Both the position numbers and the translations under genes were made by a program. This document shows, one piece after another, positions 22,906-58,605 of a stretch of DNA of 64,000 bases. The notes under the pieces were generated by a model. That model was not told the origin of the DNA and did no database searches. It worked only from the letters and a program-made list of their open reading frames with translations. The DNA is from Pyrinomonadaceae bacterium (lineage in GTDB: Bacteria > Acidobacteriota > Blastocatellia > Pyrinomonadales > Pyrinomonadaceae), in contig DASQMC010000079.1 in assembly GCA_035645695.1 (NCBI GenBank), forward strand, positions 3,402 to 67,401, in the 5' to 3' direction. Numbering within the stretch: position 1 is the first letter of the stretch; the number at the start of each line of letters is the position of its first letter.

Positions 22906-23502
22906 CTAAGTTCGCTGTTCCGGCGGCGGCGCGTCCCACAGCGTGAGAAGTCGTTGCGCCGCCCCTTTCACCCCCTCGTCGTCGTCCTCGCGCCCGACGC
23001 GCTCGACCACTGCGCGACTCTGCGGCCACCTGCGAAAAGCCAGAGCGTCGAGCGCCGCAAGCCGGAGTTTGGGGTGCGGGGCTTCGGTGGCGACGTTCTC
23101 GAAGATCACGAAGACCTCCTGGTCGTACTCCGCGAAGGTGATGGCGAGGCGATAGAGGTTGTGAACGTATTCGTCGTGCTCGTCCGTCGTGTAGGCGCGC
23201 TCGACGAGTTCCCCGGGCCCGTAGGTCGCGAGTTTGTCCGTGAAGTCTTCGATCAACTCTTCAAGATCAGAGCCGCGGAAATGCACGTAGTTCATTCCCG
23301 TGAACGGGTCTTCGACGTAGTTGATGGCGCGCATCATGTCCGGCGTAGTCCAGACCTGCTCGTAAGCCTCCTTCTCGCCCTTCGGCTCCCACGTGCCCTG
23401 TTTGGTCAGGCCGAGTTCCGCAGCCGTCTCCTCGAAAAGTTCGCGTGTGACCCCGCTCCGAAGTACGAGATGGACGCTCTCCTGATTATCTTCTGACGAC
23501 AT
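22906..23502 (-). CDS. Acidic 198-aa protein with C-terminal HEAT-like repeat, candidate immunity/chaperone partner of the upstream large protein
   Basis: Its ATG at 23502 lies 3 nt after the stop of the 1146-aa gene. The protein is rich in D/E. The C-terminus HPKLRLAALDALAFRRW...DDDEGVKGAAQRLL resembles PBS-lyase HEAT repeats. I recognised no known family. Confidence 0.6.
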   Translation of the reverse strand: MSSEDNQESVHLVLRSGVTRELFEETAAELGLTKQGTWEPKGEKEAYEQVWTTPDMMRAINYVEDPFTGMNYVHFRGSDLEELIEDFTDKLATYGPGELVERAYTTDEHDEYVHNLYRLAITFAEYDQEVFVIFENVATEAPHPKLRLAALDALAFRRWPQSRAVVERVGREDDDEGVKGAAQRLLTLWDAPPPEQRT

Positions 23503-23505
23503 TTG

Positions 23506-26500
23506 TCACCTCTTGAAAATTTCTTTGAGTTTACTACGCACGAACGTTTCCACGTCGGCAAGGGTAGGCTTTTGATCCTTCGGGAAGAGCGGCAAATCTT
23601 TCTTGTGCTTCTCGAACCACGCCTTCAGGGTTTCGCGCTCGCGCTCCCGCCTCTTGTCGGACGCTTCAGCCTCTTTCTTCGTGAGCGCCCCGATGCCCCT
23701 CGTGCCCTTCATGTCCTGCGCGACGATGGCCGCCCCCATCTGCGCCTCCCCGAAGGCGGCCGGGTGGATGCCCGTCTTGCCGACAATCTGATCGATGGGC
23801 TTGCCTCCCGGCCCGCTCGCCAGGTCAATAGCCATCATTGAGTAGGCCAGGTCGCGCCTGTTGGCGCCGCCTCCGTGGCTCGGCTCCTTCGCCATCATCA
23901 GCCCGTAGAGTTCGGCGAGGTCGCCCGCGTGCGGCTCGGCCTCCTTCGGCAGCGGCTTGCCCGTCGCCAGCATCTTGAGCCAATCGCCCGTAGGCTTCCC
24001 GGCCAGGGCTGCGACCAACTCGTCGTACTTGCGCCCCTTGGCACCGCCGCCGGGGCCGATGCCCCTCCACGGGAACGGCCCCATCTGATAGGGCGCTTGC
24101 TCGAAGCCGTGCTCAAAGGCCACTTCCTTCCCTCCCACGGTCTGCCCGACGATTACCCTCTGCTGCCCCGCGCCCAGCGCCACGACGCCGGCCGCCGGCG
24201 CACTGCGCTGCCTGATGTCTACCTGCTGCAACGTCTGTCCGCTCGGCGTCGTGACCGGAGCCAGCGGCGGCACGCCCTTCTTTTTATTCTCCCTATTCTC
24301 TTTTGCTCTCTCCTTCTGCGCCTCTTTAACCATCTCTTTCGCGATCTTGTCGATAACCAGAAACACCTGATTGTCCTCGAACGTCCAGCCCTCTGCCAGC
24401 GTGAGTTCAGGGTTGATGGTCGCCACCAATTCCCGCCCGCGCAACTCCAGCGTGGTCAACTTGTACTGCACCTTCCACAACGCGAGCCGCGCCTTGAGGA
24501 TAATGGGCGGCACGCCCTTAGCCATCAGCGCCTTCACCTTCGGCTTCAACTCGCGCCCGGCGCGTTCCAAGTCTTTCTTCTTCTCCTCGGGCGTGCGCTC
24601 CTTGCCACCGAGTTTGCCCATCATCTTCTTGACGAAGGCGATGGCCTTACCCAGGAACTTGTCGATGGCGGCGTCGATCACGCCCTGCACCTTCTTGACG
24701 GTGGCGGTGGCGCGCTTCGGTATGTCGCCGAGGCCGATGAGGCGCGCGAAGAAGCCGATGACAAGCGGGATGGCCGCGCCGAGCGCCTGTTCCACCTTCG
24801 TCGCCGCCGCGCCGATAGCCCCCTGCGCGATGGCCGACACCGAATTGACGATGGCATCCACGAACGACATGATCTGCGCGGCCTGTTCGATGACGAACAT
24901 GACCGTGTTGTAGATCGCCAGGACGGCCTGAACAATCGCGCCCGCCGGGTTGAACATCGAGAGCAGCTTCGTGACGGCGGCCTTGATCACCGTCTCGATG
25001 ATCATGTCGCGGATCGCGCCGAGCACCATCTCCTTCAGGTTCGAGAGGTCGCCCTTGACCTGTTCCCACAGTTTCGCAGGGCCGCCCGCGATGAACGTCT
25101 TGACGTATTCCACGAGTTTCTCGATGACCGTCACGGCCGTCGGCCCCAGCAGCTTGACGGCCTTCGCGCGCATGTTCTCGAAGGTGATGCCGAGAATCTG
25201 CATGACGAGTTTGAAGATCGAGGCCAGCGAGAAGTCGGCCGGAGGCGTGACGCCTGCCGAGGCGAGCGCGCCGAAAAGCCAACCGATCAAGCCCTTGACG
25301 AGCCACGACTTGATGTTGGCCTTGAACTGGTTGAAGCCCTGTTTGATCGCGCCGATCAAATTCGAGAGGAAGCCGATTGGGTCTGCGAGTATGAGTTTGA
25401 TGGTGTCCGCGCCCTTCTTCAAAAGCGCCATCAACTTGTCTTTGAACTCCGCCAGAACCTTGATGATCTCGCCGAGTTTTTCGACGAACGCCTGCACGAG
25501 TCCCTTGTTGGCGTCCTGTATCTCCTTGAGCGCCTTGTCGGCCTTATCGGACGCCTCCTTGTACTTCTGCGCGAGCGCCTGTGCGAGTTCGTTCTTCTTG
25601 TTCTCGATGCCCTGTTCGAGTTCCTTGAAACGGCCGTCAATCTCCTTCTGCGCCGACTCGCCCACGGAGCGCAGATTCGGCGCGAGATTCGAGACGTACA
25701 GCTTGATCTCGTTCTGCCCGTCCGCGACCATCGCCTTCGCCTCGGCCAGCCGCTTCTCGACCAGATCGGCGACGCGCACGACGAGCGCGTCCATCAAGCG
25801 CGTGAAGATGTTGCGCCCCTCGACGTAGAAGGCGTTCACCTCCTCGGGCAGTCCCGTGAACTGATCGGCCACCCAGCGCGCCGCGCCCACGCCCGGGATC
25901 GAGAGATAGCGCTCCAGCTTGTAGTTGAAGATGCGTTCTTCGACGTAGCTTTTCATCGCCGAGAGCGCGGCGTCCGTGCCGGTGTCGAACATCGCGCCGA
26001 CCTCCGTCTCAAGGGAGGCGAGTTTGTTCTCGACGTTCGTCTTCGTCCTGTTGTAGATGGCCTCGATGTCGTCGGCCACTTTCTTGCGTTCGAGTTCGTC
26101 CTTCTTCTTCGCGGCCTCCTGCCTGAGTTGCACCGCAGACTTCGACTTGGCCTTGCTGCCGAGCATCGCGCCCGCGCCTTTTCTCGACGCGGCCTTGGCC
26201 TGCGCGCCCGCGCTCGTGAGCACGCCCCGTTCGCGAGCGCGAAATGCGGCGGGCGCGGCGTCGGCCTGCTTGCCGACAGAATCTTTCGCCGTCAGCACCG
26301 CGCTGAAACGCGGATCGTTGGCCTTCTTTAACTGCGTCGGCGTAACTTCCGCGTCGGCCATCGCCGCGTCTGTGTCCTGTTTGGAATCTTGCAGCGAAAC
26401 GTCCGCGGCCGTCTTCGGCGCGGGCATTCCGGCGGCGGCGTCAACGTCGGGCGAAGGAGGTTGAGGCTCGTTGGGGATAGGCGTCGATTGCTTGGCCTCG

Positions 26501-57488: not shown

Positions 57489-57589
57489 TCTCTGTGCCCC
57501 CTGCGGTGTTCTCTGTGTCTGCGGTGGTGAGTGACTTCCAGAAGCATTCACCACCGCAGACACAGAGAACACCGCAGGGGGCACAGAGA
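57489..57589. repeat. Perfect 42-bp inverted repeat (hairpin, 17-nt loop)
   Basis: tctctgtgccccctgcggtgttctctgtgtctgcggtggtga (57489-57530) is the exact reverse complement of 57548-57589. Each arm contains an internal duplication, tctctgtg..ctgcggtg. Confidence 0.95.
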
Positions 57590-57648
57590 AAAGATCAGTT
57601 TTATGCAATTGCAAATGGCTATATTAAGCCGCAGGGCGCATTCGGCAA

Positions 57649-58605
57649 TCAATTCTTGAGCGCTTGCTGGACGGCCTTGATGTCTTGCTGGAGGCGGCGT
57701 TGAACGTCGGACATGACGAGTTGGAGTTGTTGGAGACGGCCTAGAACATCCGGGAGCGAAGCGGCGGGCGTGTCGGCAGTCGTATCAGGTTCGGCGGGGG
57801 GCAGGGCGCGTTCTTCGAGTTGATCGAGGCGGATTTGCTGGTAGAGCGCGATTGTGCGGCGGTCGGGCGCAACGTCGAGTTCCTGCCGGAGCGCGGCCAC
57901 GCAGCGTTCGTACTGGCGCAGCGCCGCCGTGCGGTCGCCGGACATGTAGAGCAGGTGCATCAACTGGCGGTGCGTTCGCTCGCGCGCGCCGTCGTAACGC
58001 AGGATGATCGAGCCGTGGAGCAGTCCCATCTCGTAGTCGCGGTGCGCCTCGCAATAGCTGATCAGTTTGTCGAGCATCACGAGGTACATGTTCTGCAAAC
58101 GCTCGCGGTCGTACAAACACCAATCCTGATACCAGCCTTCGAGCAGATCGCCTTTGTAGAGTTCGGCGGCTGCCTCCACGAGTCGTTTCGTCTCGTCGTC
58201 CAAATCCCGCCCGGCCTTTCCCTGCACCCGCGCGAAAGCGCGCTCGAAGACCGCCACGTCGAGCCACACGGCGGAGTCGGCGTTGAACCGTACCCAGTCG
58301 TGGCCGGTGGAGAGCAGGCTGCCGTCGTCGTTCCCGCCCGCGTCGCCCCCACCGTTTCGTCCTTCGAGCGCGGACTGCAAATGCCAGAGAGCCTGCCGCA
58401 GATACTTTTTCGACTTGTCCGTGGCCGTCTCGCCCCAGAGCAAACCGGCGAGCGATTCGCGCGTGTGCGGGCGTTCGCGATGGACGAGTAAATAACTCAG
58501 CAGTTCCTGCACCTTGAAGGCGTCGAGACCTTCGAGCGGTTGCCCATCGGCATGAACGCTGAACTTACCGAACAGTTGAATACTCAGAGTGGACATCGCA
58601 TCCAT
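57649..58605 (-). CDS. SARP-family transcriptional regulator (winged-helix OmpR-type DNA-binding domain + BTAD)
   Basis: The sequence reads LSIQLFGKFSVHADGQPLEGLDAFKVQELLSYLLVHRERPHTRESLAGLLWGE...YLRQALWHLQ, then a BTAD-like segment AAELYKGDLLEGWYQDWCLYDRERLQNMYLVMLDKLISYCEAHRDYEMGL...LMHLLYMSGDRTAALRQYERCVAALRQELDVAP. Confidence 0.85.
   Translation of the reverse strand: MDAMSTLSIQLFGKFSVHADGQPLEGLDAFKVQELLSYLLVHRERPHTRESLAGLLWGETATDKSKKYLRQALWHLQSALEGRNGGGDAGGNDDGSLLSTGHDWVRFNADSAVWLDVAVFERAFARVQGKAGRDLDDETKRLVEAAAELYKGDLLEGWYQDWCLYDRERLQNMYLVMLDKLISYCEAHRDYEMGLLHGSIILRYDGARERTHRQLMHLLYMSGDRTAALRQYERCVAALRQELDVAPDRRTIALYQQIRLDQLEERALPPAEPDTTADTPAASLPDVLGRLQQLQLVMSDVQRRLQQDIKAVQQALKN

Follow-up and report, generated by a model that had tools for sequence, protein, structure and literature searches.

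Extracellular contractile injection systems (eCIS) have been sorted into subtypes with a key that relies on the splitting of the spike gene, the copy number of afp11, the PAAR gene, and the genes afp12 and afp13, and in this scheme subtype IIb has conserved genes of its own in which no domain is known (Chen et al., 2019; PMC6899500). Regulators with a BTAD domain and toxin-immunity pairs have been reported beside eCIS loci (PMC8213781), and LysM domains, Tail_P2_I domains and 3′-end toxins with immunity genes are likewise eCIS features already reported. In Streptomyces, the cargo Sle1 was described as having a tape-measure-like trunk with a hydrophobic hairpin (PMC13277306). No paper on an experimentally studied IIb system was found in the literature that we searched. 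Here we describe a contractile injection system (CIS) gene cluster from a soil bacterium of the Pyrinomonadaceae (Acidobacteriota). The cluster lies in a 64,000-nt stretch of assembly GCA_035645695.1 (positions 3,402 to 67,401 of contig DASQMC010000079.1; hereafter, the window) with a G+C content of ~64%, and consists of 24 minus-strand genes, all in the same direction, at positions 22906-58605. We consider it likely that these genes encode a functional-looking lineage-II CIS that delivers a polymorphic toxin.

The cluster codes for the complete core of a contractile, tail-like particle. Pfam and NCBIfam searches recovered genes for the sheath, the inner tube, the spike, and a baseplate of gp25-, gp6-, and gp7-type proteins, all within this one cluster, as expected from a first-pass annotation that had called a complete contractile injection system. 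The 23 open reading frames (ORFs) of that annotation, numbered here g1 to g23 from the right-hand end, were confirmed in position and strand; a 59-aa gene found in the public annotation (g9b, 47889-48068) had been missed, which brings the total to 24. The cap or tail terminator (g3, 56309-56896) is of the Afp16/Pvc16 type (Pfam Pvc16_N, E 7e-32, above cut-off). The main sheath is a 681-aa protein (g5, 53312-55357; Pfam Phage_sheath_1 and 1C). No gene is better conserved among close relatives than that of the inner tube (g6, 52766-53218; Pfam Phage_T4_gp19, E 7e-33, and TIGR02241, with CIS5/CIS1 below cut-off), whose full-length matches there are 97-100% identical. A second sheath paralog of 987 aa (g7, 49690-52653) is sheath-like only in its C-terminal ~220 aa. 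Its Pfam sheath match is weak and its first ~760 aa gave no family match, but residues 764-980 match a Streptomyces CIS sheath in the PDB (8BKY, 1e-34), so that the earlier call of two sheaths holds. A second tube-family protein (g8, 49197-49685; Phage_T4_gp19, E 9e-33; CIS5_fam, 2.5e-16, below cut-off) resembles a tube adaptor, and the tube initiator (g9, 48084-49052) combines Pfam CIS_tube (E 2e-28) with a weak LysM match.

The spike is divided between a hub, corresponding to the gp27/gpD-like half of a split VgrG (g10, 46812-47882; VgrG_rel positions 73-346, E 5e-24; weak Phage_GPD), and a gp5/gpV-like half with an OB-fold (g11, 46069-46785; Phage_base_V, E 2e-25; VgrG_rel 370-546, E 3e-37). 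Three baseplate genes were identified: a gp25/TssE-like wedge protein (g13, 43476-43871; Pfam GPW_gp25, E 5e-20), a baseplate J/gp6-like protein of the Afp11/Cis11 type (g14, 41040-43406), and a P2 gpI-like protein of the Afp12/Cis12 type (g15, 38203-41046; Tail_P2_I and TIGR02242, with CIS12_fam at 3.5e-41 below cut-off). The sole gene matching Pfam Baseplate_J and TIGR02243 (E 1e-68, above cut-off) is g14, hence there is a single afp11 copy; its only PDB match is Cis11 of a Streptomyces CIS (9GTP, 3.5e-32). Two fibre-like proteins follow. The first (g16, 36660-38117) matches CIS13_fam at its N-terminus only (E 6e-12) and is conserved in relatives. The second (g17, 35308-36636) also has a CIS13-type N-terminus (CIS13_fam, E 2.5e-8); in relatives that keep 80-95% identity in the core genes, its own identity is 61-64%. 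A 708-aa AAA+ ATPase (g21, 27044-29170; Pfam AAA, E 2e-24) was found to contain one CDC48-like module (residues 489-612) and a long N-terminal region. Its best PDB matches are VCP/CDC48-like ATPases and its synteny is conserved; by architecture and position only, it is a candidate Afp15-type protein. Thus the cap, sheaths, tubes, LysM protein, split spike, gp25, J, gpI, fibres and ATPase of the first-pass annotation were all recovered. Its tape measure was not: no cluster gene has a supported assignment to a tape-measure family, and the sole trace is a weak match of the trunk of the cargo protein g22 to PHROG phrog_4070 (E 6.5e-5).

Sheath, tube and baseplate families are also common to phage tails, and a myovirus prophage remnant or an R-type tailocin would contain them. 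We regard this explanation as highly improbable. Neither head, portal, terminase, integrase nor lysis families were found among the genes scanned (22.9 kb downstream and ~10 kb upstream of the cluster, that is, the window plus ~4.7 kb past its right end), in agreement with what had been noted for the window itself. A Pvc16-type cap together with an AAA+ ATPase marks a CIS and not a phage or pyocin. When g5 was compared with PDB sequences, the closest solved sheaths were those of the Streptomyces cytoplasmic CIS (8BKY, 1e-104; 8BL4, 4e-102) and of the membrane-bound haloarchaeal CIS (9EZM, 4e-104). Afp3 (6RAO, 3e-49), Pvc2 (6J0B, 4e-44), the Anabaena thylakoid-anchored CIS (7B5H, 8e-43), and AlgoCIS (7ADZ, 2e-39) came next, the Afp/PVC sheath matches spanning 3e-49 to 6e-22. 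Phage and pyocin sheaths gave far weaker matches (3e-13 to 5e-6), including the R-pyocin sheath (3J9Q, 3e-13) and phage T4 gp18 (3J2M, 4e-9).

The surroundings of the cluster are cellular. The downstream flank carries two glycosyltransferase genes, a hybrid histidine kinase, an amino-acid permease, BNR/sortilin-repeat proteins, and an S9 peptidase, and the upstream flank carries YdjM, a TPR protein, and a pair of ECF sigma and anti-sigma factors, with C14 and M48 peptidases continuing past the window to the contig end. Close relatives have the same flanking genes. The G+C content of the cluster (0.643) equals that of its flanks (0.635 and 0.622), which bears out the earlier view of a resident locus, and third-position G+C of the 23 ORFs, from 58605 down to 22906, was 0.74-0.88. 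Genes, all 24 included, occupy 96% of the cluster interval, and the gaps between them are below 150 nt except for 417 nt after g1. Because the flanks are cellular and shared with relatives, phage families were not found, and G+C matches the flanks, the locus is chromosomally resident and not a prophage; within the available sequence, a prophage or tailocin is effectively excluded. As the first-pass annotation had also stated, components of a type VI secretion system (T6SS) were lacking: no window gene scanned matched the TssJ/L/M, TssK, TssA or ClpV families that define a canonical T6SS, and T6SS-related similarity was at the generic TssE/VgrG level only.

The gene content fits eCIS lineage II, subtype IIb, according to the published key. 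The afp8 gene is split into gp27-like g10 and gp5-like g11, afp11 occurs once (g14), afp10 (PAAR) was not found, and divergent versions of afp12 (g15) and afp13 (g16 and g17) are present. No called gene scanned matched PAAR, and in public gene calls the stretch from g9 to g18 holds no additional gene. These features led us to abandon the earlier label "Afp/PVC-like". The small gene g9b is a tentative candidate for the afp6 of IIb.

A genome scan with baseplate J recovered 80 loci, in which baseplate J was 87-92% identical in Pyrinomonadaceae and fell to ~50% in Chloroflexota, Myxococcota, and Actinomycetota. As judged by tblastn, g5-g17, g20, and g21 occur in one order wherever the fetched sequence covers the slots. 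A metagenome scan with the cap (41 loci) showed that the order g1-g2-g3-g4-g5 is also kept, and Solimonas soli and Thermopolyspora share the order from gp25 through the post-ATPase cargo. Taken as a whole, loci of four phyla (Acidobacteriota, Chloroflexota, Myxococcota, and Actinomycetota; >100 related loci) keep the 24-gene arrangement, and with it the SARP regulator, the two small genes, g4, g7, g12, and g20. The order and extra genes that had been singled out as non-canonical recur, together with the unassigned genes, in all related loci examined, and are therefore the norm for the lineage. Nor does the cap open the operon, as had been thought: the SARP regulator g1 and small g2 precede it, and the cap is the third gene.

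Several short contigs (L015, L030, L027/L028, L042, and L072) encode a baseplate J that is 52-67% identical and bear labels of Enterobacteriaceae, Bacteroidetes, Chloroflexales, Actinomycetota, and Pseudoxanthomonas metagenome-assembled genomes. Some of these labels are probably binning errors, and the phylum range should therefore be read from long contigs and isolates only. One more distant CIS locus (L119, 2945-12522; cap 33% identical) was found to have neither g7 nor g12. Since g7 was present in all related loci compared, and g12 in every related locus covering its slot, the lack of both in L119 makes them markers of the studied lineage and not of CIS generally.

The last two genes of the cluster carry the signature of a polymorphic toxin/immunity cassette. 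The cargo, g22 (23506-26946), encodes a 1146-aa protein that bears out the earlier call of a large payload gene. Comparison of the trunks and C-termini of its homologs showed that the trunk, approximately residues 1-800/850, is common to all of the 120 listed homologs, whereas the C-terminal ~300 residues are common to 9 of the 120; others end in Ntox15, Endonuclease_NS_2 or RNase_A_bac. The variable module of g22 spans ~850-1146, and neither it nor g23 (22906-23502), the putative cognate immunity protein of 198 aa, has a recognizable family in Pfam, NCBIfam, PHROG or PDB. The trunk is K/E/A-rich and coiled-coil-rich, with two hydrophobic helices predicted by hydropathy (668-686 and 721-739), and the central part of g22 has homologs in the proteins encoded after the ATPase in Solimonas and Thermopolyspora.

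The assignment of g23 follows from its co-variation with the toxin C-terminus. Sister loci keep the ATPase (84-92% identical) on one side and, downstream, the glycosyltransferases (73-92%) on the other, and the slot between the two varies. Locus L125 has the same pair of 1146-aa and 198-aa proteins, with a g23 homolog 81% identical. In L124, an Ntox15 toxin comes first and a GAD-like/T6SS_Tdi1_C immunity protein takes the g23 slot. In L126 (3431-11601), two tandem toxins (1090 and 1076 aa) each have their own small gene (343 and 118 aa), which shows that the toxin slot can be duplicated. Such replacement of the toxin/immunity slot argues for antagonism between bacteria.

We propose the following sequence of events for a toxin-delivering lineage-II CIS. 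The SARP regulator g1 would turn the operon on, after which baseplate, spike, tube, and sheath would be assembled in the cytoplasm and capped by g3, with the AAA+ ATPase g21 aiding assembly and/or the loading of g22. The helical trunk of g22 would sit in the tube lumen. Upon contraction, the tube and spike would push the toxin into a neighbouring bacterium, where the hydrophobic hairpin of g22 may assist in crossing the target membrane, and g23 would shield sibling cells. As to how the particle reaches its target, release after lysis and binding through the g16-g18 fibres, as in a classical eCIS, is the route that we put forward tentatively, at somewhat less than an even chance.

Several points weigh against this account. 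The particle is so far a predicted one, known from its genes. The toxicity of g22 and the protection by g23 are suggested by position and co-variation. Cargo of this kind is usually accompanied by DUF4157, and no DUF4157/eCIS_core match and no HExxH motif were found in the cluster; DUF4157/eCIS_core is present in the distant relatives Solimonas and Thermopolyspora. Placement in IIb follows only from gene content, through the published key. Genes for a lytic release were not found among those scanned, and two conserved, membrane-targeted proteins, g12 and g19, are unexplained by a simple released particle.

The first of these, g12 (43881-46061), is a conserved 726-aa protein with a C-terminal transmembrane segment at ~672-713 as indicated by hydropathy, and its gene lies between the spike (g11) and gp25 (g13). 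More than 1,000 homologs were found, all annotated as hypothetical and none with a Pfam domain, and a profile search of 1.84 billion proteins yielded 1,569 cluster representatives at 50% identity, without informative domain fusions. All listed matches that reach the C-terminal end of the profile terminate there. From Actinomycetota to Myxococcota, conservation of the protein is highest in its last ~170 residues, where the hydrophobic stretch SIPIITICAL is located. This conservation within the membrane segment suggests that g12 is more than a passive anchor. No PDB match was obtained for its fold (AlphaFold2 model, pLDDT 69; best E 0.65) or for its sequence (phmmer and a 41-sequence profile), and no Pfam family recurred over 41 family members. 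We also considered g12 as a homolog of CisA, the membrane protein required for firing of the Streptomyces CIS, and rejected it on the basis that position and topology are opposite to those in the description of CisA. We view g12 as a candidate membrane adaptor or membrane-active, spike-associated protein. It may tether or trigger the machine at the cytoplasmic membrane, or it may be carried on the spike and insert in the target membrane; the latter idea fits the finding that a PAAR tip was not found.

The second membrane-targeted protein lies among the fast-evolving genes of the cluster. Both g18 and g19 reach only 29-44% identity in loci that match the neighbouring genes at 80-95%. The product of g18 (34008-35255) has a coiled-coil-like N-terminus and an IPT/TIG domain (Pfam TIG, E 2e-6), is only ~30% identical even in the closest loci, has homologs in the same slot of Solimonas and Thermopolyspora, and occurs in a short version where g19 is absent; it is a candidate distal fibre or recognition protein. 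Downstream of it, g19 (31513-33927) encodes an exported accessory protein that ends in an outer-membrane beta-barrel (Pfam OMP_b-brl, E 1e-13). An AlphaFold2 model (pLDDT 82) consists of a signal peptide, an all-beta domain of ~550 aa, a disordered Gly-rich linker, and an eight-stranded barrel that matches NspA/OmpA/Ail (E 1e-7, TM-score 0.77). No PDB match was found for the g19 sequence, searches of PDB and viral folds returned barrel matches only and left the N-terminal domain without a match, and a Pfam scan of the family returned barrel families only. Identity of g19 in close relatives is 36-44%, and about half of the related loci have the slot occupied. Across the family, the N-terminal domain is kept and the anchor is exchanged: outer-membrane barrel, C-terminal transmembrane helix, S-layer-type insert, or a short Cys-plus-amphipathic tail without a signal peptide. 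Myxococcus eversor has an unrelated protein at this site, which is likewise exported and bears a MYXO-CTERM tail that scored below threshold. From these variants and the Myxococcus case, it follows that the slot after the fibre-tip-like gene is repeatedly occupied by a fast-evolving, envelope-anchored protein. Such a protein could act as a dock, a receptor, or in self-protection, although the variants without a signal peptide would fit none of these well.

These two proteins bring up a second mode of delivery, in which the machine would be anchored in the envelope in T6SS-like fashion, docked at the cytoplasmic membrane through g12 and here also through g19, and fired outward on cell contact. 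One of the two closest solved sheaths comes from the membrane-bound haloarchaeal CIS, in which a cluster-encoded membrane protein correlates with the membrane-bound mode, and CisA sets a precedent in Streptomyces. The universal presence of g12 in the lineage and the unusual conservation of its membrane segment, the signal peptide and outer-membrane barrel of g19, and the lack of lysis genes among those scanned all speak for anchoring, and toxin/immunity pairs are consistent with contact-dependent antagonism. Yet neither g12 nor g19 is homologous to any known anchor, about half of the related loci do without g19, the topology of the g19 family is inconsistent, TssJLM, TssK, and ClpV were not found, and hypervariable fibre-tip genes are more usual for free particles. 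On balance, we hold anchoring to be a possible mode, to which we give minority credence.

A more particular proposal is that g12 and the g19-slot protein together define a CIS mode not yet described in diderm bacteria, which strikes us as doubtful. In a dock version, the two would form an inner- and outer-membrane dock and thereby produce a T6SS-like, cell-attached weapon without TssJLM. In a receptor version, g19 would be the cell's own polymorphic surface receptor, and g18, g19, and g22/g23 would form a kin-discrimination system, by a logic like that of TraA with SitA/SitI in Myxococcus.

The main sheath and baseplate J also bear on a third mode, a cytoplasmic CIS that acts on its producer and causes stress- or development-linked death, as in Streptomyces. 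Among solved structures, the nearest sheath and the sole baseplate-J match both come from Streptomyces cytoplasmic CIS, the regulator is of the SARP type, the cargo may resemble Sle1 in its tape-measure-like trunk and hydrophobic hairpin, and a related clade of Chloroflexota/Deinococcota is intracellular. The split spike and fibre-like genes, however, differ from subtype IId, strain-variable nuclease-type toxins with cognate immunity genes point to delivery between cells, and the fast-evolving fibre-tip genes suggest target recognition. A cytoplasmic mode is, in our estimation, decidedly unlikely.

The remaining genes of the cluster have a regulatory role or no assigned family. The SARP-type regulator g1 (57649-58605) has a winged helix and a BTAD domain (Pfam BTAD, E 8e-21; Trans_reg_C), with weak AfsR/SARP matches in NCBIfam. 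It is kept upstream of the cap in relatives at 50-86% identity and is probably the cluster's own regulator. A promoter scan of the regulator region found no sigma-70-like site. The 417-nt gap between g1 and g2 contains an inverted repeat (57489-57589) with 45-nt arms that are 98% complementary and an 11-nt loop, present as a single copy in the window. It had no counterpart in any related locus fetched, and may represent either a g1 terminator or the insertion of a palindromic element; a conserved control element was considered and, given the lack of conservation in the fetched loci, probably does not apply.

Small g2 (56962-57231) encodes a conserved protein of ~89 aa. Although its ORF extends to 57396, tblastn and ORF comparison showed conservation limited to residues 56-144, and the JGI annotation gives 89 aa; the start is thus probably at 57231 and not at 57396. 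The 314-aa product of g4 (55368-56312), a conserved lineage-specific protein, lies between cap and sheath in all relatives covering the region, and matched nothing in Pfam, NCBIfam, PHROG or PDB, a profile search included. Homologs of g4 in L094, L096, L098, and L100 are three codons shorter, with a stop codon in place of the Ser/Gly of the conserved C-terminal TPAVSPP, a small difference in length immediately ahead of the sheath gene. The slot of g9b is occupied in ~40 related loci across phyla, with conserved ends (MAVVINEFEV and ERxERVRAH). Directly upstream of the ATPase, g20 (29198-31453) encodes a conserved 751-aa protein in the same slot across phyla; it occupies the position expected for a tape measure, but no match in the searches bears out such a role. 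No Pfam, NCBIfam, PHROG or PDB assignment was obtained for g2, g9b, g20 or g23, in keeping with the earlier remark that several genes of the cluster have no assignable family.

Among the neighbouring genes, those directly 3′ of g23 (17780-22887) encode a 1231-aa multidomain glycosyltransferase/methyltransferase and a 457-aa glycosyltransferase-like protein. Glycosyltransferase genes hold the same position downstream of the cargo slot in three close relatives (L124-L126), an adjacency that may reflect plain synteny or a functional link, e.g., surface glycan modification. Further to the left, the genes at 278-3871 and 6650-10879 encode BNR/sortilin-repeat proteins of very large size (1197 and 1409 aa), and an S9 prolyl oligopeptidase is encoded in the same flank; they appear to have no relation to the cluster. 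On the other side, at 61563-63995 and beyond (L127, 10989-15026), genes for an ECF sigma factor and a zf-HC2 anti-sigma factor come first, and after them those for a C14 peptidase of the caspase-like kind (552 aa) and an M48 peptidase, and one small gene.

The CIS that have been studied experimentally come from few clades; the lineage described here is very common in soil bacteria. For that catalogued lineage the cluster is ordinary, and its overall architecture is not surprising. Its worth is as a clean example from an unstudied and very widespread clade; the toxin/immunity cassette is clear, and the two membrane proteins call for an explanation. The cassette predicts interbacterial antagonism among abundant and poorly understood soil acidobacteria, and g12 and g19 could decide between released, anchored, and cytoplasmic modes in such systems.

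Compared with known systems, the locus shares with Afp and PVC (subtype Ia) the sheath, tube, LysM protein, spike, gp25, J, gpI, fibres, ATPase, cap, and 3′-end cargo. Afp and PVC, however, have a single-ORF VgrG, PAAR, and a recognizable tape measure, none of which was found here, as well as three short sheath paralogs and a cap gene in last position, and they lack the conserved membrane proteins that are present here. The Streptomyces CIS-Sc/SLP system (IId; 8BKY, 8BL4, 9GTP) resembles the cluster in having a linked regulator and a membrane protein encoded in the cluster, and the two may also be alike in a tape-measure-related cargo with a hydrophobic hairpin. It differs in its single-ORF spike and absence of fibre genes, as opposed to the split spike and fibre-like genes seen here. 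In its adaptor CisA, encoded after the baseplate genes, a disordered N-terminus precedes a transmembrane helix and an external domain at the C-terminus, whereas the gene for g12 is placed between those for spike and gp25, and the anchor of the protein is at its extreme C-terminus; a CisA-type adaptor after the baseplate was not found. The trunk of g22 may resemble Sle1, as that cargo has been described, in that it is coiled-coil-rich, has a hydrophobic hairpin, and shows a weak similarity to tape measures, but the DUF4157 partner of the Streptomyces cargo (Sle2-like, for Sle1/Sle2) was not found in the window.

With the haloarchaeal CIS (the "archaeal T6SS", clade IIa; 9EZM), the cluster has in common Cis12/Cis13-type proteins, toxin-immunity pairs, and a conserved, cluster-linked membrane protein, which in the haloarchaeal case correlates with the mode of action. 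In clade IIa, however, baseplate J is present twice instead of once, the putative anchor Hbor_38620 has six transmembrane helices and is encoded outside the core cluster, and the host is an archaeon with an S-layer whereas ours is a diderm bacterium. The toxin slot is reminiscent of polymorphic toxin systems, in which a conserved delivery trunk carries an exchangeable C-terminal toxin beside an adjacent immunity gene, and of T6SS Tde1/Tdi1 (Ntox15 with GAD-like immunity), to which the sister locus with Ntox15 and T6SS_Tdi1_C corresponds; the toxin module and immunity protein of the window fall outside described families. Subtype IIb itself (Chen et al., 2019; dbeCIS), known by sequence only, has a split VgrG, a single J, no PAAR, and divergent afp12/13, and it shares with this cluster several conserved, subtype-specific genes without a known domain.

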